Source: an uncultured Treponema sp. (GTDB lineage: Bacteria; Spirochaetota; Spirochaetia; Treponematales; Treponemataceae). Taken from it: 64,000 nt of DNA. Every line of letters starts with the position of its first letter. Positions within the stretch are counted from its first letter, which is position 1. The DNA lies in assembly GCA_946611685.1 (NCBI GenBank), contig CAMODX010000001.1, positions 33,599 through 97,598 of the forward strand. Direction: 5' to 3'. Position numbers and translations under genes: made by a program. The notes under the pieces are model-generated. The model searched no databases and was not told where the DNA came from. It worked only from the letters and a program-made list of their open reading frames with translations. Below are positions 16,159 to 57,248 of the stretch, piece after piece.

Positions 16159-16168
16159 TTTTTACTCC

Positions 16169-35964: not shown

Positions 35965-38900
35965 CTAATTATCCTTTGAGTGCCTTATTGTCACTACAGT
36001 TTTAATTTTTTTAGCAGGAACGTAAGTTTTTCCATTTACTTCAATCCATTCCGCCGCCTGACGCGGATTACCGGATATGGCATTGTCATAGCTTGAGGTG
36101 CCTGTTATTTCATAATAAGCTGCAGCGTTATATATGACTGTATTACCTGTAAGACAGACATAATGAGAAATATCCGGCTCTTCTGTATTCCATTCAACGC
36201 TGGCTGTAACGGAATAATCACTGCCGCTGTTAACTGCATCATCTATCGCTTTAATAACGGCATTTCTCCCCTTCTCTGCAGCAACAGTCCGTTTTACTTC
36301 GTATGAACCTCCTCCATAATTTGAAAGTTTGTCAAAATCTACTAAATCCTTATCACCAGGTTTATTACTGAAGGAATCACTTTCTGCAATATCCTTCGGA
36401 GTAACTTTTCTCCCGGTAAGCCCCGTAAATGCTTCAGCGACAGCCGTTACTGTACAGCCTGCTTTCCCCACAGTAGTTTCAGTACCGTTAATATGCTCCT
36501 CACACCACTTTCCATCATGCATATCCATAAAATCATTTTCAATAATCGTGAGTCCGCTGATATCGATAAAATTAACCGGGTCATAATTACAGTAAACATA
36601 CCAGTTAAGACCGTCCTTTACCGGATCTTCACTCATAAAGCCTGCCCACTGTGCTATGTAATTTCTGAAACCAAATTCATAGAATCCTGCCTTCGTTTCA
36701 TAATGCTTACCTGCAAACCCCAGATGAAGCATTTCTTCCCCCTGAACAGGATTTCCAAAACAGTCATATTTATAGTCAGACAGATTGTTTTCACCATCAA
36801 GCGTTTTGATTACTGTCCCGTTCAAATCAGTAAATAAAACCTGACGGCGTTTTTTTATGTCAGAAAGATTTTTATCAATAAGATACATGGGTTTTCCTGT
36901 CATATCATATAAAAGGCTGTAAGAACTGTTATTAAAGACCTCTCCTTTTTCATCCTGCTCAAAAGCAGTCCTGATTAAGTCTGTTCCGTTTTCTTCTATA
37001 CCGCCGTACCGGATTATTTTTTTTGCATCATCAAAACTGCTTTCTTCAAACATACTTACTGCATTAATACTAAGCAGCTGTTCAAAGCCCAGTCCTTTAT
37101 ACAGATATTTCTGGGCATAAGAATCACTTGAATCAGAATATATTTTACGGCCGAGAGCGTCATAAAGATAAGTCAGCACTGTAAAAGTCTGATTTTTAAG
37201 ATCACTGCACTCTGCCCTTACAAGTCTGTTCTGTAAATTATATTTAAACACTTCTCTTTTATGCACGGAATGCTTTTCTAAAAGATTGCCGTTATTGTCC
37301 CAGACACACTTTCCTGACTTTCCCCAGTTTAAAAGCCTGTTTTCAGCATCATATTTATAGACAATAGTTCCAAACGGAGTTTTCTGTTCAGTCATGTTTC
37401 CTTTTTTGTCATATTCAAATGAAACAGGAAGCATTCTGGACGTTAAAAAGACCTGATAAAAATTCCCTGGAATAAGGGCACAGAGTTTTTGAAGCTGCAG
37501 GTATTCTTCGTCATCAGCACGGTTTATTTCCCCTTCACAAAAGTTTTTTGATACAGTAAGCCCGGCATCTGAGAGGAGATTTTTAAAATATTCTTCATAA
37601 TAAGAATTCCAGACATAAAGACACTTTTTTATTCTTCCGTTTTCATCATAAAAATATCTGGTAACGGTAAAATCTGAATTAAGGGTGAATGTAATAAATC
37701 CTTTTTCATCATAAACTTTGCCGTCTACAAAACAGAGCTTTCCGTCACTGTCAAACCCCGCTTTTAAAATCATCCGGCCGCAATCATCATGAAAAGTTTT
37801 TATTTTCCCGCCTGTAGAAAAATCTCTTTCTACTTCCCTCAGCGTTTTAGAATACTTAAACTCAACCTTAATGTTCTCATTCACATCTTTTACAGAAGAA
37901 AGCCTTGAGTTCTCCCATTCATAATCAATTCTCCGCCCGTCACAGAAAACACCTGTAATTAAAGCATCTGAATTTCTTTTATACTGAATCTTTTTTCCCG
38001 TAAAACTGTCAGTTATACCAGTAAGAAGTCCGGCCGTATCATACTCAAAAGAAAGCACTGAATTTTCGTTCTGAGCCTTTACAAGTCTTCCGGCAAAATC
38101 ATAAGTTACTTCATTAAAACTTCCGTCTTCATAATTTTTTCTGATAACATTTGTATCTTCAAGCCACAAATGGTCAGTTCTGCGTCCATTAAAATCAAGG
38201 GTACTCACAGGATTCTGTGCCCCGTCATATTCATAAAACTCTTCGTTTCCAAGACGGTTTTTAGCGTAAAGAACATTGCCGAAAGAATCTTTTTTTATCT
38301 GATAAACACTTTTATCACTGTATTCCCTCTGACATAAATTATTGCTGTCATCAAAATGATTAGTTACAAGACTTTGAGAATCACCTTCTGTTTTTATGCT
38401 TAAAAGACGGCCAAAATTATCCCATTCATAAAACCGCTTCCGTGCAAAAGGTCTTGCCTCATATTCAGTGATTCTTCCAAAACAGTCATACGAAGCCCTG
38501 AAAAGATCCCCCCCTTTATCCCTGGCAGATATGCAGTTTCCCCTTAAATCATAATTAAACTGTGTTGACTGTCCTGCAGCATTTTTAATTTCAATAAGCC
38601 TTGATTCCCTGTCATAGGCAAAGTGCGTTACATTGCCAGTTGCGTCAGTTCTTGTGCAAAGGTTATTTAAATCATCGTATTCAAATAAAATTCTGTTCCC
38701 TGTTCCATCAATTTTTTCAATCAGGTTCCCGAAAGCATCAAAAGTGTATGTCTCTTTAACATAATCTCCATAAAGGCAGGTTACTGTTCTTCTGTCCTGG
38801 CTGTAAGAGTAAGATGATTTTTGAAGAAGTTTGCCGTCCTTATCAAAAATTTCAAAGCGCACAGGAAAACCATCATCATCATTTGCATATAAAACACAGC

Positions 38901-41856
38901 CCTGAGAGCAGGAGAGTTTTTTTAACAATGCTTTTTTATTATATTCAAAATACCACTCTGTACCATTCTTATCCGTATATTTTTTCAAAAGAGAATCAGG
39001 ATAGTACTCAAACTTCACTCCGTTATAATCTTCCAGTGCACTTTTTATAGAGCAAAGCCGTCCCTTTGAATAAGACAATGAAAACTCTTTCAACCCGTCC
39101 TTTATGAAACAGGGAAGTTCAGCACTACCGAAGGTTAAAGCCCAGACAGTCTGCCCGTTTATCTTACAGCTTTCTCTAAGTCCTTTATAAAAACCTTCCT
39201 CAATTGAACTGCCGTCATTAAAAAACGAAGTAAAAGTACTGCGCTGTCCTTCTTTATTCACGCAGAAATTTACCACATCAAAATCAAGTAAATTATTCAT
39301 TTTATCAGAAAGTTCACTGCGGACAGTTTTTACAAGACCTTTTTCATATTCAATCAAACATGAGTTAACGCATGATTGATTTATGAGTTCTTCCTCTGGA
39401 GCGCAGTAAACAATTGTCCCGCTTTGTTTTCCTTCGGGAGTCCAGCTGTATTCTTTTAAAGTTCTGCCGTTTAATGTCTCTTTTTTGATGTGATGAGTAT
39501 TATCATATTCAAATGTCCGTTTTCTTTTTACACCCGTTACACAGTCTTCTTCAGTCTGTTCAATAACATCCCCCCTCTTTGAAACAAGCTGCGTTATTTT
39601 CAGACCGTTTGAAAAACGAACAGTAATACAACAGTCACCATATTCATAATCCCTCGTTATACCGCTGCCGGAAGAATAAAAAATGATTCTGTTTTTATCA
39701 TCGTAACGCCATTTTTCTTTTTCACATTGAATTAAATTTCCGTTTAAGTCGTATTGATAATTTTTCTCATAACCGCGGCAGTCAGTTGTCTTTACAAGAA
39801 ATCCTTCTGCATCATACTGATAAGAAAAAAGCCTCTCCCCGTCTCTGAAAATATCCGTGCAGAAATTCCTGTAATCGTAATTAAAATTAAGGACAGCACC
39901 GTTTCTAAGGTTTATGCTGCGTATGTTTTCACCATCCCAGGTATAATCATCTGCAGTTGAATCAGAATACAAAACTTTTATCAGGTGGTTTTCTTCATCA
40001 TAAATATACTCATGCTTTTCACCGTTTTCCTCTTTCTCACAAAGAAGGCCTGCGTCATTATAAGAATAATTAATGACATTTCCGTCCGGCCTGCTTTCCA
40101 TTATTGTTCTGCCCTTATCGTCCCAGCCAAAAACAGTTTCATTTGATTCATGGTCTTTATAAACTGCAGTTTTGTTTTCAAGATCATAAGAAAAATACTC
40201 CGTATCGCCGTTCTCATTTTTTACTGAACTGACATAGATTTTTTCGTTTGTCCTGTCTTTTTTATCAGGATTCTCATAAAAAATCTGAGTAAAACTGTTA
40301 TCTCCTTTAAAGACTTTTTCTATATTTTGATTTGAATCATATTCATAAGAAACACAGACTTCGCCGAAAGGAAAAATCCCGTTAAGTGAACTTACTTTAA
40401 AAAGCATATCGGCTGAATACTCATAAGTAATTTGTGCAGAAGAAGTGCCAAAACTTTTTATTCTTCCCTCTTCACACAATACCTCAATAGTAGTCCCGCC
40501 GTTTACTTTTATCCGTACCAGATTCTCTTTATCCCATTCATATTCAGTTACAAAGCCGTGTTCATCGGCTGTTTTTACAAGCTGGCCGTAAGCACCGTAA
40601 AAAAGTTCACCTGAATCATTTTTCTTTACTTTAAAACCTTCCCCGTCTTCCTCAAAAGTAAAGCCGCAGTTTTCAAGAGTCTCGTTTTTCCATACGCCGT
40701 CTTCTCTGCTCAGAATATAAGAAAATCCTTCTTCATCAATATAAATAACGCTCTCTTCATCCAAACTTTCAGCCAGTTCACTGTTTTCTCCATAACGGAC
40801 ATATACATCAAGCTCCCTGTTTTTTAATCCTTTTTCATGTTTTATCTGCCAGTCCTTTCCATCTTCCTCAACCCTGCAGTAAATTGCCCGGGCTTTCTTA
40901 AAAATCTCAAGGTATTGATTATATCTGTTTTTCTTCATGATTTGTGATGAAGAGCCGCCATCATCGTCGTCCTCTTCACCATCGTCCTCTTCATCGTCAT
41001 CCTGGTCCTCATCCCCGCTGATTTCCCCGTCAGTAACTTCGTCAGACACATCAGAAGTTTCTCCGGAACTTCCCCCACCGTCAGAGTCACTCTCCAGCGT
41101 TTCCAGAGTAATACCTGCATAGCGTTCTGCCTTTTTTTTTATCGACTCCCAGTCAGCATCAATAATTTCTTTAGTTTCTTCATACGCTTCTTCATCAAAA
41201 TCAAATGCATGACGGTATCCGCGGATTACACGGCTTTCAAGATTTGTTTTCCAGCCGCGGCCGAAAAGACCTGGTTTTGCCTTTTTTACAAGTTCAGCGT
41301 TAGTTTTTGAATTGCTTGAGCGGAAAAATCTGTTTACCGAAAAACTGCAGCCTCCATAATTTACGCATATATCTTCAAGTTCATGTAAATATATACCGGA
41401 TGAAAACTTTACAGGGTCACCTGCAGTATCAACAATCTTCCCCGTTTCATCCTTGATTTTTGCCCAGTTACCATTTTTTGAATAAGAAACTGTTTTTCCC
41501 TCGGCAGCACAGGCAGTCGCAAGCCTTTCCTTTGCCTCTTCAACTTTAGCGCGTGCATATTCAAGGTCTGTTGAACTGTAATTTCCCTCATTTTCTTCCA
41601 TTTCTGCAAGTTCACTAACAGCCTCAGAAAAAGCCCTTGCTTCATAATCTGCAGAACCTGTTACTTCATGATTACCGTTTGGATCCGATGAATTTGAAAA
41701 ACCATGATAATTTCCGGAATAAAAATCATCATCTTCACGCTGGGAACTATTCCAGCCGCCTGCCGCGTCAGGATCCGAATACGGATAAAGCCCTGTTATA
41801 CCTGCAAAAATACAGAATAAAAATACGGCAAAAATTTTTATTATTTTATTTTTCAT
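35965..41856 (-). CDS. Rhs/YD-repeat protein with a Sec signal peptide and a C-terminal papain-fold (C39-like) peptidase module
   Basis: 1963 aa. Signal peptide MKNKIIKIFAVFLFCIFAGITG. N-terminal Rhs plug GDPVKFSSGIYLHELEDI...GLFGRGWKTNLESRVI. Dozens of YD repeats (YEYD..GNL, YDAENRL, and others). The core ends DPVKDGLNWYVYCNYDPVNFIDISGL, followed by a 194-aa CT domain. GGAGG lies 5 nt upstream of the ATG. Confidence 0.9.
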   Translation of the reverse strand: MKNKIIKIFAVFLFCIFAGITGLYPYSDPDAAGGWNSSQREDDDFYSGNYHGFSNSSDPNGNHEVTGSADYEARAFSEAVSELAEMEENEGNYSSTDLEYARAKVEEAKERLATACAAEGKTVSYSKNGNWAKIKDETGKIVDTAGDPVKFSSGIYLHELEDICVNYGGCSFSVNRFFRSSNSKTNAELVKKAKPGLFGRGWKTNLESRVIRGYRHAFDFDEEAYEETKEIIDADWESIKKKAERYAGITLETLESDSDGGGSSGETSDVSDEVTDGEISGDEDQDDDEEDDGEEDDDDGGSSSQIMKKNRYNQYLEIFKKARAIYCRVEEDGKDWQIKHEKGLKNRELDVYVRYGENSELAESLDEESVIYIDEEGFSYILSREDGVWKNETLENCGFTFEEDGEGFKVKKNDSGELFYGAYGQLVKTADEHGFVTEYEWDKENLVRIKVNGGTTIEVLCEEGRIKSFGTSSAQITYEYSADMLFKVSSLNGIFPFGEVCVSYEYDSNQNIEKVFKGDNSFTQIFYENPDKKDRTNEKIYVSSVKNENGDTEYFSYDLENKTAVYKDHESNETVFGWDDKGRTIMESRPDGNVINYSYNDAGLLCEKEENGEKHEYIYDEENHLIKVLYSDSTADDYTWDGENIRSINLRNGAVLNFNYDYRNFCTDIFRDGERLFSYQYDAEGFLVKTTDCRGYEKNYQYDLNGNLIQCEKEKWRYDDKNRIIFYSSGSGITRDYEYGDCCITVRFSNGLKITQLVSKRGDVIEQTEEDCVTGVKRKRTFEYDNTHHIKKETLNGRTLKEYSWTPEGKQSGTIVYCAPEEELINQSCVNSCLIEYEKGLVKTVRSELSDKMNNLLDFDVVNFCVNKEGQRSTFTSFFNDGSSIEEGFYKGLRESCKINGQTVWALTFGSAELPCFIKDGLKEFSLSYSKGRLCSIKSALEDYNGVKFEYYPDSLLKKYTDKNGTEWYFEYNKKALLKKLSCSQGCVLYANDDDGFPVRFEIFDKDGKLLQKSSYSYSQDRRTVTCLYGDYVKETYTFDAFGNLIEKIDGTGNRILFEYDDLNNLCTRTDATGNVTHFAYDRESRLIEIKNAAGQSTQFNYDLRGNCISARDKGGDLFRASYDCFGRITEYEARPFARKRFYEWDNFGRLLSIKTEGDSQSLVTNHFDDSNNLCQREYSDKSVYQIKKDSFGNVLYAKNRLGNEEFYEYDGAQNPVSTLDFNGRRTDHLWLEDTNVIRKNYEDGSFNEVTYDFAGRLVKAQNENSVLSFEYDTAGLLTGITDSFTGKKIQYKRNSDALITGVFCDGRRIDYEWENSRLSSVKDVNENIKVEFKYSKTLREVERDFSTGGKIKTFHDDCGRMILKAGFDSDGKLCFVDGKVYDEKGFITFTLNSDFTVTRYFYDENGRIKKCLYVWNSYYEEYFKNLLSDAGLTVSKNFCEGEINRADDEEYLQLQKLCALIPGNFYQVFLTSRMLPVSFEYDKKGNMTEQKTPFGTIVYKYDAENRLLNWGKSGKCVWDNNGNLLEKHSVHKREVFKYNLQNRLVRAECSDLKNQTFTVLTYLYDALGRKIYSDSSDSYAQKYLYKGLGFEQLLSINAVSMFEESSFDDAKKIIRYGGIEENGTDLIRTAFEQDEKGEVFNNSSYSLLYDMTGKPMYLIDKNLSDIKKRRQVLFTDLNGTVIKTLDGENNLSDYKYDCFGNPVQGEEMLHLGFAGKHYETKAGFYEFGFRNYIAQWAGFMSEDPVKDGLNWYVYCNYDPVNFIDISGLTIIENDFMDMHDGKWCEEHINGTETTVGKAGCTVTAVAEAFTGLTGRKVTPKDIAESDSFSNKPGDKDLVDFDKLSNYGGGSYEVKRTVAAEKGRNAVIKAIDDAVNSGSDYSVTASVEWNTEEPDISHYVCLTGNTVIYNAAAYYEITGTSSYDNAISGNPRQAAEWIEVNGKTYVPAKKIKTVVTIRHSKDN

Positions 41857-41866
41857 TTAGCCTCCG

Positions 41867-43174
41867 TTAAAATGCATTCCAGTAAAAAAGCCTGTCGATT
41901 AAAGACACATCCCCAGAAACTGACGGGACATAGCCCGTACAAACATTTACAAAACTGCATTTATCTGCTGTTTTTGAGCCGTTTACATATGAAGACGGAT
42001 GAGAAATATCAAAAATCCCCGGCGATATACTGACCGCAAAAAAGATTCCAAGAGGATAAGCTGTAGTGACAGACTGCCCTCTTACGCTGTAGACAAACAG
42101 TTTCTCTAAAGCATCCCCCGCTTTCAAAAAAACTTCTTCATCAGATGCCGTCCACTCAGCATCTTTATTTTTCCACCATTCACTTCCCCCAGATATTAAC
42201 TCCCATAAATCAAGATAAAGGTCACAGGGATAAGAAGGCGCATAATAAGACATAACAGAAGAAGAAAGATAATTTTTAAAATCGTTCTGCAAAGTGCTGT
42301 CAGAAATTTTTTGTGAAATCATCCGGGCAAACACATTAAAGTTTTCAACCGCCGGCTCAAGTTCAGACAGATCAATCAGTGAAAAACATTCATACTCATA
42401 ACCTGTATTATCTTCAGAAAAACTGTCACACAAAACTTTTCCAAACTCCTGTGCAGAAAGAGAAGCTGACTTTATTTTTCCTAAAAATGAATAATCTAGT
42501 CCGTCCCCCCTCATAATTCCGCTCGTACCAGCCATAAAATGAGTACACTCTTTAAGTTCCCAGAGTGTTTCAATATTCATCGAAAAACAGGTATCAAAAC
42601 AGATAAGGTCAAATTTTTCTCCCTGAGCAAGTCCTTTTTTTATCCCCTGTCCCAGAGCGACGGGAGAAAGTTTTGTAAGGGAATAAGAGTCAGTTGAATA
42701 ATACCTCCAGCCTGACCCATGCCCCCAGACAATAAAAGCATTTTTCTTTGCCGGATAGTTTTGCAGAATATAAGAAATAAATCCTGAGACTGTTTCCTTA
42801 TTTGCCATATCCAGTTCCACATTCTCCTCAGAACTAAGTCCAAGATTTCTGCAGTCAAGACGCAAAGAAGCAATGGCAGGTGTGCTGTCCTTTACAGCTT
42901 TGTAAAGTCTGGTGTCAGTCCAGTCACCGTTAGAAGCATCATTACCTTCGGCTCTGTCAAAAAGAACAAAAACATTCATTCTGCTCTCATCAAAACCAGA
43001 CGATTCTATTTCATTAAAATCACTGATTCCGGCGCCTTCAAGATTATTATCTGCAGCCATGTAAACAAGAACATTCCATTCTTTCTGCTCACATTCATCT
43101 TCAGTTTCAAGAAAACACCCTGCGAAAAAGAAAGCCACAAGAATTCCATAAATCAAAAACCGTATTTTTCTCAT
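41867..43174 (-). CDS. clostripain-like cysteine peptidase (family C11), lipoprotein
   Basis: 435 aa with lipobox FFFAGCFLE. WNVLVYMAADNNLEG is the C11 N-terminal motif. IVWGHGSGW carries the catalytic His-Gly and LICFDTCFSM the catalytic Cys. An ATGA overlap joins it to the upstream ORF. Confidence 0.8.
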   Translation of the reverse strand: MRKIRFLIYGILVAFFFAGCFLETEDECEQKEWNVLVYMAADNNLEGAGISDFNEIESSGFDESRMNVFVLFDRAEGNDASNGDWTDTRLYKAVKDSTPAIASLRLDCRNLGLSSEENVELDMANKETVSGFISYILQNYPAKKNAFIVWGHGSGWRYYSTDSYSLTKLSPVALGQGIKKGLAQGEKFDLICFDTCFSMNIETLWELKECTHFMAGTSGIMRGDGLDYSFLGKIKSASLSAQEFGKVLCDSFSEDNTGYEYECFSLIDLSELEPAVENFNVFARMISQKISDSTLQNDFKNYLSSSVMSYYAPSYPCDLYLDLWELISGGSEWWKNKDAEWTASDEEVFLKAGDALEKLFVYSVRGQSVTTAYPLGIFFAVSISPGIFDISHPSSYVNGSKTADKCSFVNVCTGYVPSVSGDVSLIDRLFYWNAF

Positions 43175-43614
43175 TGAATCTCATCTCCAGTTCCATAGAT
43201 TCCATAAAAATCCTTCCATGAGCTGCCATCCGCAAAAACAACCTTCTGTAGATAAGCATTCTTCAAATACAGATTTCCGTCATAGTCCCCTGTAACAAAC
43301 TCATCCAGACTCAAAGCCATTTTAAAAATCTCACCGCTTTCAAGCCTTTCTTCACAGTAAGAAACAACCGAATCCCCGTCTTCAAACGGACTGTCCCCAT
43401 TCTGGTCACACAAAATCAACACCACCTCAAAGGCTTTAATCACCTTAGCGGAAGTATTAACAATCTCCAGAAGCACCGCACCATCCTCACAGAAATTCTC
43501 AATTCTTCCGTTATGAACTTTACATTCATTGAAAGAATATGGAGTCTCTGCCGCCGCCATAAAAGAAACCGCTATAAAAAATATCAGACACAAAATTACT
43601 CTTATATTTTTCAT
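43171..43614 (-). CDS. small secreted protein of unknown function
   Basis: 147 aa with signal peptide MKNIRVILCLIFFIAVSFMAAAE. ATGA overlaps are present at both ends. Confidence 0.6.
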   Translation of the reverse strand: MKNIRVILCLIFFIAVSFMAAAETPYSFNECKVHNGRIENFCEDGAVLLEIVNTSAKVIKAFEVVLILCDQNGDSPFEDGDSVVSYCEERLESGEIFKMALSLDEFVTGDYDGNLYLKNAYLQKVVFADGSSWKDFYGIYGTGDEIQ

Positions 43615-44132
43615 TCTGCACCTGCCATTGCCATTAATTTTTCTTTATCCTCCGGATTACCCGAATGACACCACTCATAAAGAACCGAATAAAACTGATA
43701 CAGTTCTTCTGAGCCGTTTATGTTTTTTTCACGCTGCAAGACCAGTTCTGCCTCATCAAAAAACTTTTCCTTAAGCATTTTTTCAACTCCTTTAAGTTCT
43801 TTTTCAAGCGGAACAAGCTGAATACAGATAAGCGAGCGGCCATCCCAGTCTTCAATATTTTCATCAAGAGATGCCCAGCCTTTTTTACCGCCTGTTAATT
43901 TAATTTTCCGCTCCTTATAATCACCAAAAACAAAATATCCCCTTTTATCCGTCAACACCTTATCCCGTCCGTTTTCAACCCTGCAGCCCTCAATTCCCTT
44001 CCCGTCAGGTGAACAGATTCTTCCCGCAAGATAACAGCCGTGTGAATGTCTGGATGAAGCACAGGAATTCCCGCTCATAATCAAAACGAAAACTGCAGCC
44101 GCCTTCAAAATACTAATTAATCCTTTTTTCAT
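43611..44132 (-). CDS. small lipoprotein with a carboxypeptidase-regulatory-like beta-sandwich and a helical tail
   Basis: 173 aa with lipobox LIMSGNSCASS. GRICSPDGKGIEGCRVENGRDKVLTDKRGYFVF resembles the CarboxypepD_reg fold signature. GGAGGAATT lies directly upstream of the ATG. Confidence 0.55.
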   Translation of the reverse strand: MKKGLISILKAAAVFVLIMSGNSCASSRHSHGCYLAGRICSPDGKGIEGCRVENGRDKVLTDKRGYFVFGDYKERKIKLTGGKKGWASLDENIEDWDGRSLICIQLVPLEKELKGVEKMLKEKFFDEAELVLQREKNINGSEELYQFYSVLYEWCHSGNPEDKEKLMAMAGAE

Positions 44133-44167
44133 AATTCCTCCGTTATTGTTTTTCTGTAAAATAAGTT

Positions 44168-45337
44168 TTATATACTCACTTTTTCAGTAATGATTTTTCC
44201 GTCCTTTGATTTCCAGTAAATAAAGATTTCATTTCCTTTCCTGATTTCTCCGAGTTTCTCTGGATGTCCGCCTTGAACAGTTTTGACTGTTTTTTCCCTT
44301 ACAGGAGTTTTCTTTAACTCAAGGGAAGAAGGCGCATTAAAAAGAGAAGCATAATCTGCAATTATTTCGCTTACTGCACTACCGCTTACAATTCCTTTTT
44401 CAAAAGAAGCAGAAACAAGAATTCCGCTGGCGGCAGACTCAACGCAGAGAGAAGTTTCATGCCAGAAAGAAAGATTAAGGTAATCACAGGTCATCTTAAG
44501 AAGTCTTTTAAAGTTTTCTTCCCCAGTAAAATACCTGAACTCTATTTTTTCCTGACTGCATAATTCCGTCTGAAGCAAAGCCCCGTAATTTTCAAGTCTC
44601 TCCCTGACCCCCCGTATAAACTCACTGCTTTCAAGTGCACCTTCAAGACAGTCTTTAGTCCCGAAAGAACAGTCAACAGAAACAGAAAATGAAGGAGATC
44701 TGTTTTTATAGGAAACAGAACAGGGACGGTCAAAAACAACAGTTTCAGGATGACAGCCATTAATAGAAAAGCTGCATTTCTCACCGTTCCAGTTAAAGGC
44801 TGAAACAGTGCCTGAGTTTTCATAAACCCTTCCAAGAATCTGTTCTGCAGTTTCCATCACATCCGGATAAATTGAACTGAACATCGGTTTCTCCTTATCA
44901 GATAACGAATAAAGCTGAGAAGTTTCAGCGTTCCAGGATTTTTCCCTTAAAAACCCGTTGTTTTTAAAAAGCAAAAATCCACTGACAAAAATCAAAATTG
45001 CAGCGCATGTGACAAACCTGCTTTTCATCCTCTTTTTAGAAACAGGAATCTTAAATTTTTCTCCTTCAAGCTCAAGCTGACCAGAAGATGAATTTGACCT
45101 GCACTCAGAAAGAATCTTTGAATCAATTACCGCAACCCTGGCAAGAAGCTTTCTGTTTTTTATCCTGTATTTTGCGTAAGTAAAAAAACTCGCCGAAAAT
45201 CCCGGATGATTTTTTTCAAGCTGCTGTTCAACGAGCTTCCTTCTGTTTTTAAAATTCACAACAGAAAGAGGAAGAGAAAATGAATAAAGTTCATACTGAT
45301 TTTTTTTAACGGTATTTTCTATTTTTCCTTTACGCAT
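44168..45337 (-). CDS. bitopic inner-membrane protein, candidate assembly-platform component (GspL/M or PilN/O analogue)
   Basis: The start is moved to the ATG at 45337 (AAGGAG 6 nt upstream). It has a ~110-aa cytoplasmic part, one TM (FVTCAAILIFVSGFLLF) and a ~260-aa periplasmic part. The assignment rests on topology and position only. Confidence 0.4.
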   Translation of the reverse strand: MRKGKIENTVKKNQYELYSFSLPLSVVNFKNRRKLVEQQLEKNHPGFSASFFTYAKYRIKNRKLLARVAVIDSKILSECRSNSSSGQLELEGEKFKIPVSKKRMKSRFVTCAAILIFVSGFLLFKNNGFLREKSWNAETSQLYSLSDKEKPMFSSIYPDVMETAEQILGRVYENSGTVSAFNWNGEKCSFSINGCHPETVVFDRPCSVSYKNRSPSFSVSVDCSFGTKDCLEGALESSEFIRGVRERLENYGALLQTELCSQEKIEFRYFTGEENFKRLLKMTCDYLNLSFWHETSLCVESAASGILVSASFEKGIVSGSAVSEIIADYASLFNAPSSLELKKTPVREKTVKTVQGGHPEKLGEIRKGNEIFIYWKSKDGKIITEKVSI

Positions 45338-45654
45338 ACCATCTCCTTTCTTCTGTTTTCTTTTTCCCAGGAACACTTAAGTTCCTGAGCACCAGCATTT
45401 TTTTCTACAGATATGGAACTTAAACTAAAGGTCAGACTGCACATTTTTTCCCATTCATCAAAATCGTTTTTTGTACTGTCTTTCCGGGAACATAAAGCCT
45501 TGAAACTTTCAGCAATAAAACGGTCTGTCTGATATTCATTTTTTAATGCATAGTAGCCGGCTGAAAACTTTTTTAACGGACCTAATGATGAAGAAAATAT
45601 TCCAAGACTTAATGCAAGAAGTCCCGCAGAACACACGATTTCAATCAATCTCAT
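45319..45654 (-). CDS. small pseudopilin-like protein (no leader peptide)
   Basis: 111 aa beginning MRLIEIVCSAGLLALSLGIFSS, a hydrophobic N-terminal helix with Glu at position 5. GGAGG lies 7 nt upstream. Confidence 0.45.
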   Translation of the reverse strand: MRLIEIVCSAGLLALSLGIFSSSLGPLKKFSAGYYALKNEYQTDRFIAESFKALCSRKDSTKNDFDEWEKMCSLTFSLSSISVEKNAGAQELKCSWEKENRRKEMVCVKEK

Positions 45655-45844
45655 TAACTTCCTCCGTTTTTATCTCATAAGTTTTAATAAGGACTTCCTT
45701 CTGCTTTTTTAAGAGAGTAATTTTTCCTTTGTAACCTTCAGCAAGAGAAGACAGCAGCACGGAAACAATAAAAATAACCAGGACACTCTGAATCAGTGCA
45801 AAGCCTTTTGCACTTTTATTCCCATGAAACAATGTCTTTTTCAT
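45641..45844 (-). CDS. mini pseudopilin-like protein
   Basis: The ATG at 45844 is preferred (GGGGGA upstream). MKKTLFHGNKSAKG/FALIQSVLVIFIVSVLLSSL resembles a prepilin leader plus N-methylation helix, with Gln instead of Glu at +5. It is only ~67 aa. Confidence 0.45.
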   Translation of the reverse strand: MKKTLFHGNKSAKGFALIQSVLVIFIVSVLLSSLAEGYKGKITLLKKQKEVLIKTYEIKTEEVNEID

Positions 45845-46313
45845 CACCACTTCCCCCTTTCAGTCCATCCGCGCCAAAACAGATAATTCCCCAGGCAAGT
45901 CCGTCAGGCATCAGCTCGTACTGACCGGAAGAAGCACAAAGAGCACAGTCTCTGGCGTCAAGATAAAGATATTTATTTCCCCACGGATCAACAGAAATTT
46001 TTCTGTCAGTATATGGCCCCCGCCATTTTTCATAGTCCTCCGTGCCGCTGTCATTTGACCACAATATTTCAAGTCCCTGAGAAGTTTCAGGAAAATGACC
46101 CGTATCAATGTAAAAAGACTGAAGTGCCGTTCTGTAGTTTTCTATCTGAGCTTTTGCCGCAGCCGCTTTTCCTTTCTGAAGCAGTTTAAAAATGCCGGCC
46201 CCCACCTGCGCCGTAAGAACAGCCGTTAATGCAATAACTGCAAGCGTTTCCATAAAAGTAAACCCCGCATCTAAAGCATTTCTTCTATATTTTTTCCCAG
46301 ATTTTTTTAACAT
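45816..46313 (-). CDS. gspG: type II secretion system major pseudopilin GspG
   Basis: 165 aa with the prepilin site LDAG/FTFMETLAVIALTAVL and the GspG-specific DPWGNKYLY motif. AAGGAGG lies 4 nt upstream of the ATG. Confidence 0.85.
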   Translation of the reverse strand: MLKKSGKKYRRNALDAGFTFMETLAVIALTAVLTAQVGAGIFKLLQKGKAAAAKAQIENYRTALQSFYIDTGHFPETSQGLEILWSNDSGTEDYEKWRGPYTDRKISVDPWGNKYLYLDARDCALCASSGQYELMPDGLAWGIICFGADGLKGGSGDEKDIVSWE

Positions 46314-46318
46314 TTTTC

Positions 46319-46618
46319 CTCCTTATAAAACTCCGCGTTAGCGGCGCTGCATGGATGCAGCGAATCGCAGTTTTGCCAAAGGCAAAATCTGCACATTAAA
46401 AAAGTACATGGAGGTACTTTTTTAATGCATACTCCTTATAAAACTCCGCGTTAGCGGCGCTGCATGGATGCAGCGGATCGCAGTTTTGCCAACGGCAAAA
46501 TCTGCACATTAAAAAAGTACATGGAGGTACTTTTTTAATGCATACTCCTTATAAAACTCCGCGTTAGCGGCGCTGCATGGATGCAGCGGATCGCAGTTTT
46601 GCCAGCGGCAAAATCTGC
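46319..46618. repeat. 113-bp tandem repeat, 2.65 copies, each unit carrying 3-4 hairpins
   Basis: Units start at 46319, 46432 and 46545. Hairpins per unit are GCTGCAT-gg-ATGCAGC, GCAGTTTTGCC-nnn-GGCAAAATCTGC and CATTAAAAAAGTAC-atggag-GTACTTTTTTAATG. The few substitutions include positions in a hairpin loop (AAA/AAC/AGC). Confidence 0.95.
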
Positions 46619-46637
46619 CGGTGATGAAAACAGCCCG

Positions 46638-47591
46638 TTACCACACAAAACTCGCCCCGCCTAAAACCGGCACCAGCGTATCTTTAAAAAGAAGGTAAAG
46701 ATAAAAACAGATTCCGCACATTAAAAGCGGGTTTAAGAGCGTTAAAAACACTTCCTCTTTCTTCTGCTTTTTTTGATTCAGGATTCTGAAGGTTTTTTCA
46801 AAACACGCATAATCACCAGATGCTTCAGAAAGACACAAACAAAGCCCCGCAGTCCGTGAAGCAAAATCAAAACCGCATTCTTTAAGTGCTGAACAGAATA
46901 CCTCTGCAACTTTCTCCCCCTCCCTTATTCGCCTTCTGATTTTTAAAATCATCCCCTCAATTTTTTCATTACCCCTGAACATCAGAAAAACACAGTCCAG
47001 AGCACCGGCAAGAGTAAAACCGTTCTCAACTGAAAAAGAAAGAACCTTAAATAAAAGCGGCGGAACAGAAGGAGAAAAAATATGTTTTACAAGCAGCGCT
47101 GTCCCCGCACAAAACACTCCTAAAAATAAAACAGACGATTCTCCAGTCAAAAAAAAGCCTTTAACTCCTCCGCCTTTTGCTCCCGCTGTTAAATAAAAAA
47201 CAAGACTGAACACAAAAGACAGAGCACACACACAGACAGGATACAAAAGTGAAAGAAAAGACTTTTCAAAACGATTTAACCGTTCCTCAAGCATTTTTTT
47301 TAAAAACCCTAAGGTCTTTATAAGGCTTCCGTTTTCTTCCGCACTGTAAATAAACCCCGAAAACCAGGAAGGAACCTTTATGCAGGAAAGTTTTTCAAAG
47401 GCTTCACCTGTTTTTTTCCCTTCAGAAAGAAAGTTCTTTAATTCCTGACAGCATAAATGAACATTAAGAGGCACCTTTCCACAGGTCCTTCTGTCTGACA
47501 GTTCACTGACCGCCGTTTTAAGAGAAAAACCTGCTTCGCAATAACCGTAAAGAAGCTCAGTCAAAACTAAAAGTGTCTTTTCATCTTTCAT
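46638..47591 (-). CDS. gspF: type II secretion system platform protein, GspF/PilC family (short form)
   Basis: The ATG at 47591 forms an ATGA overlap with the gspE stop. The T2SSF-like segment reads ELSDRR...FSGFIYSAEENGSLIKTLGFL. It has three or more TM helices, and ~317 aa is shorter than the typical ~400 aa. Confidence 0.65.
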   Translation of the reverse strand: MKDEKTLLVLTELLYGYCEAGFSLKTAVSELSDRRTCGKVPLNVHLCCQELKNFLSEGKKTGEAFEKLSCIKVPSWFSGFIYSAEENGSLIKTLGFLKKMLEERLNRFEKSFLSLLYPVCVCALSFVFSLVFYLTAGAKGGGVKGFFLTGESSVLFLGVFCAGTALLVKHIFSPSVPPLLFKVLSFSVENGFTLAGALDCVFLMFRGNEKIEGMILKIRRRIREGEKVAEVFCSALKECGFDFASRTAGLCLCLSEASGDYACFEKTFRILNQKKQKKEEVFLTLLNPLLMCGICFYLYLLFKDTLVPVLGGASFVW

Positions 47592-48853
47592 ACACACCTC
47601 TCATCAATAATTGACTTCAACTTTCCGCCAAAGCTTTCATCATCACTAATTTCAAACAAGTCCGGAACAGTTTCAAAAACCTTTGCCCGTAACACAGGAA
47701 GCCACCTTTCCCCATTTTTTTTGTAATCAAGTTCCTGGGAGATCACTCCTTTTAAAACAGTACAGAGAGTTTTTAAGGAAAGGCCCAGGTCACACAGCCT
47801 TAAGAGCGTTTCAAAAATTCCGTCCGTATGAACTGTTGCAAAAACAAGATGCCCCGTAAGAGAGGCCCGTAAGGCCGTCTTTGCAGAAAGTGAATCACGA
47901 ATTTCCCCTACAAAAACAACATCAGGATCGTGGCGGAAAATATACTTAAGGGCACTGTCAAAATCAAGTTTTGCCGTTTCCTCAAGCCTTATCTGAGTAA
48001 CCCCCTCAAGAATATATTCAGGCGGCTCTTCTACAGTGATTATTTTTTTTGTTCCTTCACTTTCCTTTAAAATCCACTGCAGCACCGCAGAGGCTGTAGT
48101 GGTCTTACCTGAACCCGTAGGCCCTGAAATCAGCACAAGTCCGCTTTTACAGCAGGCAGTTCTTCGGATTATTTTCTGCTGTCTTTCATCAAAACCAAGT
48201 CCCTCAAGTTCCGGATTCACCCTCTGTGTATCTAAAAGCCTCAGGACAACTGACTCTACTCCTTCTTCAGAATAAGTAGAAATCACCGGAAGACAGGATA
48301 CACGGATAAAGACAGTTCTCTTTTTTCTTTTCCAGATAAACTGCCCGTCCTGTCCGCTTCTTTTTTCCATAACATTCATACGGGCAAGAACTTTTATGCG
48401 TCTTACAAGTTCAAGCATTCTCTGAACGTCAAGCCGACAGGCTTTCTCAAGTCTTCCGTTTATCCTGTAGCGGACACAGTTTTCCTCTATGTGAATGTCA
48501 CTCGCCCCTTTTTCAGCAGCCTCTTCAATAAGAGAATCCAGAAGCAGCACCCCTGCGCTGTTTTCATCGTATTCAGGAATTCTTTCGCTTATAAATGAAT
48601 CAGATGAACATCCGTAATTTCTGGTAACTATTTTTTCAAGTTCATCAGCATCAATCTTAGTGAAAGTACATTCAATATCTGTTCTTTCAAAAAAGATTCT
48701 TGCAGAACGCTCAAGCCTGTTTTTTAATTCCGTATTATCAGGATTTACAAGACCGAAGCAGACGGCATTTTTTGACTGTGAGAGTAAAGCAACTCCGTTA
48801 TACAGGCAGAACTGAGTTCCAAGCTCAAATTTTTTAATGCAGTCCTCCCTCAT
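47588..48853 (-). CDS. gspE: type II/IV secretion ATPase GspE/PilB family
   Basis: 421 aa with Walker A ISGPTGSGKTTT, Asp box, Walker B VFVGEIRD and His box TGHLVFATVHT. An ATGA overlap joins it to the gspD stop. Confidence 0.9.
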   Translation of the reverse strand: MREDCIKKFELGTQFCLYNGVALLSQSKNAVCFGLVNPDNTELKNRLERSARIFFERTDIECTFTKIDADELEKIVTRNYGCSSDSFISERIPEYDENSAGVLLLDSLIEEAAEKGASDIHIEENCVRYRINGRLEKACRLDVQRMLELVRRIKVLARMNVMEKRSGQDGQFIWKRKKRTVFIRVSCLPVISTYSEEGVESVVLRLLDTQRVNPELEGLGFDERQQKIIRRTACCKSGLVLISGPTGSGKTTTASAVLQWILKESEGTKKIITVEEPPEYILEGVTQIRLEETAKLDFDSALKYIFRHDPDVVFVGEIRDSLSAKTALRASLTGHLVFATVHTDGIFETLLRLCDLGLSLKTLCTVLKGVISQELDYKKNGERWLPVLRAKVFETVPDLFEISDDESFGGKLKSIIDERCV

Positions 48854-50855
48854 ATAAGCTTAAACTCCTTCAAAACCCGTCTCATTTCCTCTTTTTTTTC
48901 TTCAGAACGGATTTTTTCTTTGAGAAGGCCATCCTCATTTTTCTGAAAGTCTGCCTCCGGTGAATCAATATTAGGCACCAGGTAAATTACAAGTTCAGTT
49001 GATTCAGTCTTTTTATCACTTCCCTTAAAAAGTCTTCCTAAAAGAGGAACTTTTGATATCCAAGGAATCCGCGAATCAGTTTCACTTTCCTCATTTTGAA
49101 CAAGGCCGCTTAAGATGACAGGTTCACCGCTTTTTGCCCTCACTTCCGTACTCACCAGTTTTTCAGAAGAAGGCGGCGGATTTCCGGTTTTAGAAGAAGT
49201 GTCCGTGCCCTGACGGCTTACACTGGCAGAAATTTTAGTAGTGATGCTTTTATCTCCGATTACAGTTCCAGTTATTTCAAGTTTAAGCCCTGACACGATT
49301 TCTCTTGTTACCCCTGAATAAACAGGTTTTCCCGTTTCAGGATCAAGATTATTGTCACGGTAGCGGTAAGTATTAGTGTTCTGAAAACTTATGGTTCTCC
49401 CGGAAACTCCCGTCAGCGTTGTATCAGCAAAAACACGGGCCTTAGTTTCATTAATCGAAGTCTGAAGGGCAGCAGCAAACTTTAATCCAAAAGCTCCCGT
49501 CACATCCATATTAAAATCAAGCACACTTCCAAGAGCTGCAGTCAGAGAGTTTTCATCAGTTTCCGCTGCTTTAGAAACAGTTAGAGAAGGATTCCATTCA
49601 CTCCCCTTTGAATTCTGATATTGAATTATCAGAAGATCATAGCTGACTCTGGTTACAGGCCTGTCGTACTCTTTAAGTTCCTCAAGCAGCCTTATATATT
49701 CATAATCAGTTCCAGTAAAATAAAAGCTGTCCCCCTTTCCGCTCTCAGTTATTTTTGAACGGTCGGCAAAAGGCGGCGGACAGGATATAAAATCTGACGC
49801 CTTAAGATGCTTTAACTGAACGAGTCTTGCGTTTGTTTTTACATCCCAGCTGTAAAGAAAATCATCAAAATCAGGTTCATCTTTTTCACGGATAAAATAC
49901 AGAAAATCGCCGTTCCCTCCAGCTTTTACAAGTTCAAGGTCAGGAAATCTTTTTAATGCCGCAGAAGAAAACCCCTCAAAGCTTCCGTACTTTAAGACAC
50001 CTTTCCGCCACTCTTTGCCGGTAGAATCGATTTTTTTTCTGGCATTCTTTGAACCAATCACATAACAGATCCCGTCTTCAAAAACCGCTTCTGCTCCGGC
50101 TAAAGCACAGAGATTAACGGCAAGCTCTTCAAGCGAAAGATTTGAGAGGCTGGCACGGACAATTTTTCCGTCCCCGCCTGAAACAATACAGAACTGAACG
50201 CCGGCGTCCTTAAAAAGCCTGTCGAGGGCGCTTTCAAGTGAACAGCCGGAAACATCGCAGTTCCAGTACTGTCCTGCGGTAACAGAAAAAACAGCCCTGC
50301 CTGTCAGAGTCTGAACAGGATTTTTGTAGTGCGTGAAACATGAATAACACCATCACCTTTTTTTTCAGCTTCAAAACCACTGCAAAGCCCTGTAATTCTT
50401 GAAACAAGTTCAAACTCAGTACAAAAACCGGTATGAATGCTCACACAGACCGCAGGCAGACTGTCAAAAGTAATGCAGGTTTGAGTCTTTTCGGCCGTTT
50501 TTTCAAACAGCTGTGACGGAGTCATATCAAGTGCATCCAGTGAATACAAACCTTCTTCGTTTTTCACCAGAGAGTACCTGCTGACAGTCCAGCCTTCACT
50601 GCTTTTAGTAACATAAAGCCTCGACTTCCTCAAAAACGAATCAAATGCAAGGTCAAAATCATCCCCGCTCACGCGGAAATCTCCCGTGCCCTTTACAGTG
50701 TCATCGCCCGTAACAGGAAAGCCTTTATAAACAGAAACCGCATACAAAATCTCAGACAAGTCTTTATTGATGAATTCAAAGCTTTCAGCTCCCGCCTTAA
50801 AAACAAGGAAAAACATCGCAAAAGACACAAAAATTTTTTGGAAAGTCTTAATCAC
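48850..50855 (-). pseudogene. gspD: secretin GspD, split into two ORFs by a 1-nt frameshift as sequenced
   Basis: The N-terminal ORF is 50304..50855. Its GTG start has AAGGGGG 5 nt upstream, its signal peptide is MIKTFQKIFVSFAMFFLVFKAGA, and its N0-like segment reads FEFINKDLSEILYAVSVYKGFPVTGDDTV. The C-terminal frame is open from 50352 down to 48850. It has Secretin_N-like LSLEELAVNLCALAG and the secretin C-terminal motif IPWISKVPLLGRLF. The frames overlap at 50304-50352 and join if the A5 run (50321-50325) becomes A6. Confidence 0.8.
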
Positions 50856-55295: not shown

Positions 55296-57248
55296 ATGGC
55301 TACTACTACTTCCATAATAGTCCTCCTCAAATTTTTTGCAGGCAGACAGGACAATGCAATAATTGATTTCAATGAATTTACTGAATACATCAAACGCTAT
55401 TCAGAACATCACCTCGAAGAACAGCCCTCTCTTGTCACATATCTTTCTGATACCGCAAATGTACTTTTAAAGGAACTTGAAAAACTTGCTGACCAAAGAC
55501 AGATTCTTCTTCTACAGCCTACAGTAGAAAAACGCCAGATTGTTGTAATTCCTTTTTTTACTGACAAATATACAAAACGCTACAAAGAAATTTTAGTTCA
55601 GCCTCAGATTCCTTTTCCCCAGGAAGGCGATATTCCCAAAAAAGTACCGAACGAAGTAATCACACGCCGCTCTGCCGCAGAAATAATCAACGAGCTTCTT
55701 GAAAAAGAAACTCTTACAGACAAATACCTTTATGGAATTGTACTTCCTCATGATTCTCCTACAATTCTTCTTCCTTCCCTTGTATCAATTCACACCCTCA
55801 TAGAATGTGCCGTTCTTAAAATCCGCACAATGCTGACAAAGGACGAGCATCACGACTACTTTATGAAAAAACTGACAGTTTCAAATCCTGGAAAGGAAAT
55901 GACTGCCAAAAATATCTTCAATAGATTCTGCCAGAATCCAGATTCGTCAAAGATGTTTAAGGAGCCTGAAGATTCATTCTACTTTATGACTCAGCTTCTC
56001 TTCTTTATCCGCCAGGATTATGAAAAAGTAAAGGATTACACGGCAGAAGATCTTGCAGTTCTACAGTCAGTTTACATTCTCGAAATTGTATCAAACTTCT
56101 ACAAAACAAGGGCCCAGGACAAAAATAAAAAAGAAGCAGCTATCAAAAACCTTGAACAGCAGCTTTCCCGTCCGCCTTACTATTTTACTTACGAAACAAT
56201 TACAAAGTTTACAAGCAACAGCGGAGTTCCGCTTTTAGGGCAGTATTCAGAAGATGAGCTTAAAGCCTTCCTGCATGCAAAAACCACTGAAAGTGCTGCA
56301 AATGATCTTCCGGAAATGCTTGTCTTTAAAACTGAAACAGAAAACCAGCCCTACTTCATTTACAAAAATAAAGTCATGCCGCTGATTTTACGCCTGTGTT
56401 CAGATGCACGCACAACAATCCGTGAGGCAATAAAAAAGCACTGGTTTAATGTTATGAGAAGTTACGACGACCTTCCAGAGATGAAAGAACAGAAGGCCTT
56501 TGAAAAACGTCTTGAAAAAGAAACTGCCCTTCAGTCCCCTATTCTCTACGCTCTTTTAACTTCCTCATTTATGCCGTTAATTGACTACGAAGTAAATGCA
56601 GAAACAGACAGTTCAGGCTTATCAGGCGGAAGAATCACTCTGTTTGAAAACGGCCGCCTCATTCCATATTCTGACATCCTTTTAATGGACAGACAGAAAC
56701 TTTTAACAGATACAAAAATACTGCTTCCTTTCTGGTATGCAATTCCTGTAATTTCATGGATTATGAAACTGATAATGAGGCCTCCAAAAGCAAAGAAGCC
56801 TAAGCAGACAAAAACAGATGCACAGATCTATCACGAAAAAGAGGCAGAAAAAAGCCGTCAGGACAATCAGGAAGCAGCCCTTGCCCAGAATCCTGCTGTT
56901 TCAAAAAAGGTTGCCCTCCGCGAGGCTGCACGCAGCCTGGAAGAAGAACTTGTACCTTCAAGTTCAACCTTAGACCGTGAACTTCATTCCTACGAACACA
57001 TGTGGAACAAACTCATCGGAAAAGTTACCCACAATAACCTGACGGAAGATGTTAACTCACTCATAAAAGACTACCTCCGCAAGGTTCTCCGCAATATGAA
57101 GTCAGAAGGCTTTAATAAAGAGCGCATTGAAAATCTTGCAGAATCTCTGGTAAAAACTCCCCCGATGCAGAAAATCGGTGAGCCTGATGCACTTACAATG
57201 TACATACAGCTTTACATCATAAAACTTGTAAAAAATATCCCTATGTAA
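55296..57248 (+). CDS. large hypothetical protein with one C-proximal TM helix
   Basis: 650-aa ORF with a TM at ILLPFWYAIPVISWIMKLIM followed by a Lys-rich stretch. No family recognised. Confidence 0.55.
   Translation: MATTTSIIVLLKFFAGRQDNAIIDFNEFTEYIKRYSEHHLEEQPSLVTYLSDTANVLLKELEKLADQRQILLLQPTVEKRQIVVIPFFTDKYTKRYKEILVQPQIPFPQEGDIPKKVPNEVITRRSAAEIINELLEKETLTDKYLYGIVLPHDSPTILLPSLVSIHTLIECAVLKIRTMLTKDEHHDYFMKKLTVSNPGKEMTAKNIFNRFCQNPDSSKMFKEPEDSFYFMTQLLFFIRQDYEKVKDYTAEDLAVLQSVYILEIVSNFYKTRAQDKNKKEAAIKNLEQQLSRPPYYFTYETITKFTSNSGVPLLGQYSEDELKAFLHAKTTESAANDLPEMLVFKTETENQPYFIYKNKVMPLILRLCSDARTTIREAIKKHWFNVMRSYDDLPEMKEQKAFEKRLEKETALQSPILYALLTSSFMPLIDYEVNAETDSSGLSGGRITLFENGRLIPYSDILLMDRQKLLTDTKILLPFWYAIPVISWIMKLIMRPPKAKKPKQTKTDAQIYHEKEAEKSRQDNQEAALAQNPAVSKKVALREAARSLEEELVPSSSTLDRELHSYEHMWNKLIGKVTHNNLTEDVNSLIKDYLRKVLRNMKSEGFNKERIENLAESLVKTPPMQKIGEPDALTMYIQLYIIKLVKNIPM

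Follow-up and report, generated by a model that had tools for sequence, protein, structure and literature searches.

An eleven-gene Treponema operon joins type II secretion-like genes to a clostripain-family protease and a polymorphic Rhs protein: a candidate export route

How does a large Rhs toxin with a signal peptide leave a cell that has two membranes? Rhs proteins that are large and carry a signal peptide form a recognised class (PMC10433427), and the route by which such Rhs/YD toxins cross the outer membrane of diderm bacteria is undefined. A gene cluster at positions 35965-50855 (minus strand) of a 64,000-nt stretch of DNA from an uncultured Treponema sp. (contig CAMODX010000001.1), referred to here as the window, raises this question and suggests an answer. 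In the cluster, genes for a machine resembling a type II secretion system (T2SS) run into genes for a C11 protease and an Rhs protein. On balance, we favour the reading that it is one copy of an ancestral operon of a Treponema clade, encoding a minimal, type II secretion-like envelope machine of the type IV filament superfamily together with its probable cargo. The operon gives a concrete, conserved gene set for such a route: a secretin, an ATPase, a platform protein, a pseudopilin, a candidate private scaffold and three lipoproteins, including the C11 protease.

The open reading frame (ORF) list and the translations gave eleven consecutive co-directional genes. They encode a secretin, GspE-, GspF- and GspG-like proteins, proteins of 67, 111, 389, 173 and 147 aa, the C11 protease and the Rhs protein. 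An earlier note on this DNA had described the same minus-strand array, and its ORFs and coordinates were reproduced, with gspD split into two frames. The other ten genes are intact. Four junctions are ATGA stop/start overlaps (48850-53, 47588-91, 43611-14 and 43171-74), and three are longer overlaps of 29 nt (45816-44), 14 nt (45641-54) and 19 nt (45319-37). Two intergenic gaps measure 10 nt and 35 nt, and each carries a GGAGG. These junctions had been listed before, and all coordinates were exact on recheck. A consensus scan for promoters and terminators found nothing above the shuffled expectation within the unit.

The block had also been called AT-rich by eye. Its G+C content is indeed lower than that of the rest of the window (39.4 versus 41.0%), but the shift is modest and comes from rhs (37.7%) and the accessory genes (39.1%), with gspD-F at 41.5%. 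Recent horizontal acquisition was rejected because the same two genes, corA and the carboxyl-transferase gene, flank the locus in different lineages and because the G+C shift is small.

The upstream genes encode the parts of a secretion-like machine. The gspD-like secretin gene (48850-50855, minus strand, as are all genes of the cluster) comprises ~667 codons, matches Pfam Secretin at 9e-28 and is split by a 1-nt deletion. Its start is the GTG at 50855, downstream of AAGGGGG, and the encoded signal peptide is MIKTFQKIFVSFAMFFLVFKAGAES. Against TIGR02517, the secretin scored 73 bits (cut-off 351), and the MshL and PilQ scores were about equal. The second gene encodes a GspE/PilB/ComGA-type assembly ATPase of 421 aa (47588-48853; Pfam T2SSE 2.8e-74), which is 38% identical to E. 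coli GspE. The ATPase is short, with the GspE model match ending at position 378 of 486, and it reached 246 bits against TIGR02533 (equivalog cut-off 630). The third product is a GspF/ComGB-type inner-membrane platform protein of 317 aa (46638-47591; Pfam T2SSF 7e-14), with E values of 3.8e-13 for ComGB and 7e-9 for GspF, both under their cut-offs. A GspE ATPase and a GspF platform protein are therefore assigned at the superfamily level, with the ComGA, ComGB and PilB models scoring about like the Gsp models.

Pilin-like genes follow. The major pseudopilin (165 aa; 45816-46313) is GspG-like. It has a prepilin leader with the motif DAG↓FTFME and Glu5, its T2SSG match (3.2e-23) spans the full profile, and its TIGR01710 score is 85.9 bits (cut-off 88.85). 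A mini prepilin-like protein (67 aa; 45641-45844) carries KG↓FALIQ..., gives a weak ComGE match (E 0.024) and keeps the motif (D/K)(A/E)G↓F in its orthologues. The next pilin-like protein (111 aa; 45319-45654) starts with M-x-L-x-E followed by a hydrophobic helix, so that Glu5 is present and the leader is absent. This N-terminus is conserved in five orthologues and looks like that of a mature pilin without a leader; the protein has no Pfam or NCBIfam match. Neither the 67-aa nor the 111-aa protein matched a GspH-K family, and BLAST with E. coli GspH-K came back empty. The profile searches that the earlier note had proposed recovered its labels for Secretin, T2SSE, T2SSF, T2SSG, Peptidase_C11, RHS_repeat and Rhs_assc_core, while Secretin_N and N_methyl gave nothing above threshold.

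All T2SS-type proteins stay below the NCBIfam equivalog cut-offs, and the scores bear on a second reading. The upstream genes might specify a fibre of the competence or type IV pilus kind, used in DNA uptake or adhesion, and the 147-aa protein, C11 and Rhs might form a separate, Sec-dependent surface toxin. The toxin would then cross the outer membrane in another way, e.g. by spirochaetal lipoprotein surface export, in vesicles or by lysis. In favour of this, the competence-pilus models ComGA, ComGB and ComGE do nearly as well as the T2SS models, or better, with the ATPase, the platform protein and the 67-aa protein, the secretin is about equal against MshL, GspD and PilQ, and canonical T2SS parts are missing. 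However, the match of the major pilin to the GspG model is full-length and falls just short of the equivalog cut-off, and no ComEA or ComEC was found among the called genes of the C11-seeded loci described below. The linkage counts given with those loci oppose independence as well. We regard two separate systems, and with them another way across the outer membrane, as quite improbable.

The next protein of the cluster is bitopic (389 aa; 44168-45337), with a ~100-aa cytoplasmic domain, one transmembrane helix and a ~260-aa periplasmic domain, for which repeated alpha-beta-beta units are predicted. Its family comprises 298 representatives at E<=1e-3 among 1.84e9 proteins, nearly all of them 380-430 aa long, and it has no relatives in Pfam, NCBIfam or PDB sequences. 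An AlphaFold2 (AF2) model from a three-sequence alignment was of low confidence (pLDDT 51). With this low-confidence model, Foldseek returned local matches to PilM, EpsL-cyto, PulL-cyto and PilO at E 0.1-0.5, none of them significant. When a 50-sequence profile of the family was aligned with E. coli GspL and GspC by hhalign, the probability was below 1%. The protein is treated here as a scaffold specific to the system that resembles GspL in size and topology only. It serves as the marker of this system and is possibly an analogue of GspL or of PilM-PilO.

Three exported proteins are encoded between this candidate scaffold and rhs. The first is a lipoprotein of 173 aa (43611-44132) with a CarboxypepD_reg-like beta-sandwich, for which only weak Pfam matches were obtained. 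Its lipobox Cys, followed by AS, is conserved in ~40 orthologues, and the protein is a pilotin candidate, by inference only. The second is an exported protein of 147 aa (43171-43614) with a faint DUF5780 match, which is a lipoprotein in most orthologues. Its gene always lies directly upstream of C11, even where T2SS genes are not nearby. The third is the clostripain-family (C11, clan CD) cysteine protease itself (435 aa; 41867-43174), a lipoprotein with the lipobox FFAG↓C. It matches Peptidase_C11 (PF03415) at 5.7e-40, and C20, H152 and C196 are invariant in 15 homologues, so that both the profile and the His152/Cys196 dyad are in place. The lipobox Cys is conserved across ~40 orthologues of C11.

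The last gene, rhs (35965-41856), encodes an Rhs/YD-repeat polymorphic toxin of 1963 aa with matches to RHS_repeat (2.8e-45), DUF6531 and Rhs_assc_core. A Sec signal peptide at the N-terminus (~41788-41856) is followed by an acidic linker, DUF6531 (41221-41421) and the YD shell. The Rhs-associated core (36550-36768; TIGR03696 2.1e-14, aa 1697-1769) ends in DPVNFIDISGL, which gives the protein both the YD/RHS repeats and the core ending of the DPxGL type. A C-terminal domain with invariant Cys32, His129 and Asp155 completes the protein (35968-36549). At 40961-41003 (Rhs aa ~285-300), a 15-nt tandem repeat encodes an Asp/Glu-rich linker. In the orthologues, the linkers after the signal peptide are acidic or Gly/Ser-rich and very variable in length. 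The cleavable-looking signal peptide that the earlier note had seen was called as a Sec-type signal peptide, and it is kept in 25 of the 29 Rhs orthologues. In the other four, which lack a clear signal peptide, the start codon was probably miscalled.

The C-terminus of the Rhs protein is variable, as in polymorphic toxins. The 130-250 aa after DPxNF(I/V)DxxGL belong to at least six unrelated families among 25 orthologues. The window sequence falls into a family of 14 members with invariant Gly-Cys, His and Asp. Its one PDB profile match was to the catalytic-Cys region of streptopain (E 1.3), sequence searches of Pfam and PDB assigned no fold to the window domain, and its single-sequence AF2 model (pLDDT 31) was unusable. 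Judging from the invariant residues alone, this domain may be a Cys-His-Asp hydrolase. Other Rhs C-termini matched YkuD (5e-9) together with Tlde1_dom (3e-4), NlpC/P60 (2.8e-9) and, weakly, CHAP; two families had no assignment.

We checked the region 3' of rhs for genes of putative immunity proteins. An ORF with a signal peptide or lipobox follows rhs in 12 of the 20 loci inspected, and three more contigs end too soon. These exported products would fit periplasmic immunity proteins against cell-wall enzymes. The window itself has no immunity gene, and a convergent carboxyl-transferase gene ends 105 nt past the rhs stop. Lineages with the Cys-His-Asp domain often have nothing encoded from the rhs stop to the conserved gene that comes next (35860-35964 in the window), and L042, L034, L043, L060 and L028, with related C-terminal domains, have an exported ORF 3' of rhs. 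Taken together, the organisation of the Rhs gene is the pattern of a putative polymorphic antibacterial toxin acting in the periplasm or on the cell wall.

An origin from a type VI secretion system (T6SS), a Tc toxin or a phage was rejected, as no match to PAAR, VgrG, TcA or SpvB was found. Neither the Rhs protein nor the called genes of related loci contained PAAR or another T6SS marker. A Pfam scan of the full-length Rhs protein returned RHS_repeat and DUF6531 only, and its N-terminus is a signal peptide with no PAAR- or VgrG-linked domain. This bears out the earlier statement that T6SS partner genes are absent, and the locus tables hold no T6SS families.

Is the linkage of the two gene groups particular to this strain? 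A metagenome scan seeded with the 389-aa family gave 54 loci, corresponding to 45 clusters at 95% nucleotide identity, and the genes of the loci were counted with family hidden Markov models built on orthologues. C11 was found in 32 of the 33 informative loci, Rhs came directly after C11 in all 27 loci, and gspDEFG lay upstream in all 24. The whole array was also found, in the same order, in the loci of C11 homologues that were 50, 41, 38 and 36% identical. In these C11-seeded loci, the order is secretin, E, F, G, a small ORF and proteins of 110-123, 360-384, 172-177 and 149-159 aa, followed by C11 and an Rhs of 1862-1961 aa. The components are 26-64% identical to those of the window (secretin, 52-63%; ATPase, 42-51%; platform protein, 26-33%; 389-aa protein, 28-36%; C11, 36-50%; Rhs, 27-41%). 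A scan of genome contigs with GspG, limited by its pattern method, gave one close relative (L003), in which the contig breaks off within gspG. The earlier note had named homologous clusters that never neighbour Rhs or C11 as the observation that would refute its claim. The clusters do neighbour them, across dozens of divergent lineages.

Within the operon, conservation is highest in the secretin, above that of the ATPase and of the platform protein. This order is the opposite of what is usual in type II secretion systems and type IV pili.

Most loci adjoin the same corA gene, and an FGE-sulfatase gene is also kept beside the cluster. Given this shared corA site, the operon appears to be ancestral and vertically inherited and not a mobile island. 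For the same reason, adjacency alone is less telling than the counts might imply. Some loci depart from the pattern in instructive ways. Two loci (L028/L029) have the 147-aa gene, C11 and Rhs with two downstream exported ORFs and no T2SS genes within 10 kb. Two others (L030/L031) have the ten genes through C11 at a different chromosomal site, with no Rhs. L064, and probably L083, have T2SS genes without C11 and Rhs. The occurrence of the toxin genes alone in L028/L029 would suit two separate systems, while the linkage counts (32/33, 27/27 and 24/24) do not. As C11 travels with either module, it links the two.

The same loci bear on the idea that the machine is a general-purpose T2SS, i.e. a housekeeping exporter of many folded exoenzymes (polysaccharide lyases, for example), with C11 and Rhs being two of many substrates or just synteny neighbours. 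T2SS-like clusters without Rhs (L030/L031), or without C11 and Rhs (L064, probably L083), are what it would predict. The functionally unrelated corA and FGE-sulfatase genes are likewise kept beside the cluster across lineages, and proteins with pectate lyase and CBM77/Big_2 domains are encoded in the same window (13048-18418). Pectate lyase-type proteins are classic T2SS cargo in Dickeya. On the other side, the translational coupling extends to rhs, the adjacency is near-universal at 25-50% protein identity, and C11 moves with the T2SS genes to a different chromosomal site. We consider a general-purpose exporter unlikely, if somewhat less so than two separate systems, and keep to an operon in which the machine and its probable cargo belong together.

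A different matter is whether the system works in the window strain. An A5 run at 50321-50325 joins the two frames of gspD, which corresponds to a 1-nt deletion. In L032, a 98% identical contig of the same species, the run is A6 and gspD is one intact ORF, and orthologues of 654-691 aa are intact in all more distant relatives examined. The identical split was found in the Logan assembly of SRR5322977, which is possibly the same strain as the window. Pseudogenes caused by homopolymer tracts have been reported to be common in treponemes (PMC8049484). The difference in the A run could be due to phase variation, decay or sequencing error.

The second change is a tandem repeat between gspF and gspG. 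It lies at 46319-46618 on the plus strand, comprises 2.7 copies of a 113-nt unit (TRF score 579) and belongs to the TD-2 RNA family. The Rfam matches to RF03162 (46345-46431 and 46458-46544) reach 50.5 and 48.9 bits and thus exceed the gathering threshold of 48.7 by a small margin, on the strand antisense to the operon. The fold z-score of the array is -9. As the gspF-gspG spacer of L032 is only 61 nt long, the window carries an insertion of 258 nt, and the block was not seen in any other relative examined. Since it is absent from the 98% identical contig, the element seems to be recently mobile or expandable. The array was inserted at a GCCGCT site, and its internal copies carry AAGGAG followed by the two-codon mini-ORF ATG-CAT-TAA. 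The last copy provides the Shine-Dalgarno sequence of gspG. The TD-2 motif was described as a multi-copy element of unknown function in T. denticola (PMC1950547). The window copies share with it the three-hairpin architecture, the multi-copy nature as a genomic element and a score above gathering, and they differ in forming a tandem array inside an operon, antisense and barely above the threshold.

The earlier note had seen no hairpin with a T run inside the unit. This is not strictly true, since each repeat copy contains an A6-GTAC/GTAC-T6 hairpin and two G+C-rich hairpins. The T-run hairpin falls short of the G+C criterion of the terminator scan. Because of these hairpins, read-through across the array is not guaranteed.

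With gspD frameshifted and the TD-2 array inserted, the system of the window strain is probably inactive or in decay; the alternative is that the gspD A run is a sequencing error. That the cluster is a non-functional relic here, whatever the family does elsewhere, has in our judgement an even chance. The A6-to-A5 frameshift, present also in the independent (possibly same-strain) assembly of SRR5322977, the TD-2 insertion, absent from L032 and every other relative, and the lack of an immunity gene in the window all fit a relic. Against it, the ten other genes are intact and the catalytic residues of C11 are kept, one differing homopolymer could reflect an error in sequencing or slippage that can revert, and the inserted repeat restores the ribosome-binding site of gspG.

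For the family as a whole, the favoured reading is a dedicated machine with its probable cargo. The gene content, the translational coupling, the linkage across lineages, the export signals, the catalytic residues and the polymorphism of the Rhs C-termini are observed, and from them we infer that Rhs passes through the secretin, what C11 does and what the toxin attacks. The Rhs pre-protein, C11 and the two small exported proteins would enter the periplasm via Sec, and C11 and the 173-aa protein would be lipidated. The ATPase, the platform protein and a GspG pseudopilus would then push Rhs through the secretin to the cell surface or into the medium. The 389-aa bitopic protein may serve as the membrane scaffold and the 173-aa lipoprotein as the pilotin. 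The C11 lipoprotein might process or activate the Rhs protein, whose shell would carry the variable C-terminal enzyme that attacks the cell wall of competitors. Candidate immunity proteins, encoded downstream of rhs in most lineages, would act in the periplasm.

Several points weigh against this reading. The cluster is missing several canonical T2SS parts, as no GspC, GspH-K or prepilin peptidase turned up in it or elsewhere in the 64-kb window. The prepilin peptidase GspO was likewise not found within 10 kb in the related loci examined, and its GxGDxK motif is absent from the window. The N-domains of the secretin are not recognisable by profile, as N0, Secretin_N and STN gave sub-threshold matches in one orthologue alone. 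The 389-aa protein has no sequence similarity to GspL or GspC. The T2SS and C11-Rhs modules are separable, and the conserved adjacency could in part be inherited synteny and not selection. In the window, gspD is frameshifted, and no downstream immunity gene is present in the window, L032, L022, L037 or L044. Finally, a folded Rhs cocoon may be about as large as a secretin channel admits, or larger. Of the earlier proposal of a dedicated T2SS-like exporter, the functional linkage has gained from the conserved eleven-gene order, while the machine lacks several of the parts that define a T2SS.

More tentatively, the operon could represent a hitherto unrecognised T2SS-derived pathway specialised for polymorphic Rhs toxins in spirochaetes. 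Such a pathway would have its own scaffold, C11 would mature the cargo or attach it to the surface much as PorU does in type IX secretion, and the Rhs cage would protect the periplasm of the producer during transit. If so, this shielding would explain why some lineages have no immunity gene. To our minds, this extended version falls somewhat short of an even chance.

Elsewhere in the window, the genes at 13048-18418 encode a 1036-aa protein with Big_2 and CBM77 (pectin-binding) domains and a 749-aa protein with Big_2 and a pectate lyase domain. The products look exported, and the region has a low G+C content and the largest tetranucleotide deviation outside the cluster. The genes suggest that this treponeme degrades pectin and that their products may be additional T2SS cargo. 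Overlapping tandem repeats with periods of 15-63 nt occupy 1799-2191, inside a 565-aa minus-strand ORF (1205-2902) whose product is probably repetitive and coiled-coil-like. Upstream of the carboxyl-transferase gene, the intergenic region has 2.3 tandem copies of a 26-nt AT-rich repeat (34235-34293). Flanking ORFs of 591 aa (32440-34215) and 650 aa (55296-57248) matched no Pfam family at E<=1e-5.

What the operon would mean depends on its place among known systems. In a comparative study, cultured treponemes had zero complete secretion systems (PMC8049484). The operon points to a type II-like machine in Treponema and suggests that treponemes of the gut, rumen and mouth have a weapon against other bacteria. 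Which parts of a T2SS-like machine are dispensable could also be read from a minimal one. Our search of the literature on Treponema secretins and pseudopilins, on Rhs with a secretin and pseudopilin and on Rhs with clostripain did not find the arrangement described.

T6SS-dependent Rhs and Tlde1-type effectors share with the Treponema Rhs proteins the Rhs shell, the DPxGL core and polymorphic C-termini. They also share L,D-transpeptidase-like or NlpC/P60-like peptidoglycan-directed domains and periplasmic immunity proteins, which are putative in Treponema. The difference is in the N-terminus, which in the Treponema Rhs is a Sec signal peptide with a low-complexity linker and not a PAAR/VgrG-binding region. 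T2SS operons that encode their own cargo are known from Klebsiella (pul, with PulA) and E. coli (T2SS-beta, with yghJ/SslE and the pilotin YghG). Like the Treponema cluster as we read it, they combine a dedicated T2SS with a large Sec-exported substrate, which is a lipoprotein there, and a small lipoprotein pilotin. Unlike it, they are complete T2SSs of 12-15 genes with C, H-K, L, M and O, and their cargo is a hydrolase.

Bacillus subtilis WapA (PMC10433427) is a Sec-exported Rhs protein that exceeds 1500 aa and ends in a polymorphic toxin domain, but its host is a monoderm with no outer membrane to cross. Zhang et al. (2012) filed RHS toxins with a signal peptide as 'T2SS/Sec-dependent', with no signature neighbourhood genes and as a 'default pathway' (PMC3482391, Table 1). 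The caspase-like (clan CD) processing peptidases of that survey are internal toxin domains (PMC3482391). The Treponema system resembles this class in its signal peptide, RHS repeats, variable C-terminal toxin (including LD-peptidase types) and association with clan-CD peptidases. It differs in that the Treponema cluster has a ten-gene signature neighbourhood and that its clan-CD peptidase is a separate lipoprotein.

A functional precedent is Bcn-A of X. perforans, a 1398-aa Rhs-family bacteriocin whose supernatant activity is lost in an xpsD mutant (PMC7259588). Both are Rhs-family proteins of diderms, antibacterial in one case and putatively so in the other. The activity of Bcn-A needs a T2SS secretin, and accessory and immunity genes are adjacent to it. 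Bcn-A depends on the general Xps machine, whose genes lie elsewhere; it has other accessory ORFs and no C11 (PMC7259588). The claim in the earlier note that a T2SS-linked Rhs is undescribed can therefore not be kept in full, given the 'T2SS/Sec-dependent' class (PMC3482391) and the xpsD requirement of Bcn-A (PMC7259588). It stands for a one-operon machine with C11, which was not found described. Compared with Bcn-A and Xps, the Treponema cluster places machine and toxin in one coupled operon, has a minimal and divergent machine and occurs in a spirochaete. What is new here is the combination of a dedicated minimal T2SS-like machine, as we read it, in one operon with a polymorphic Rhs toxin and a separate clan-CD protease.

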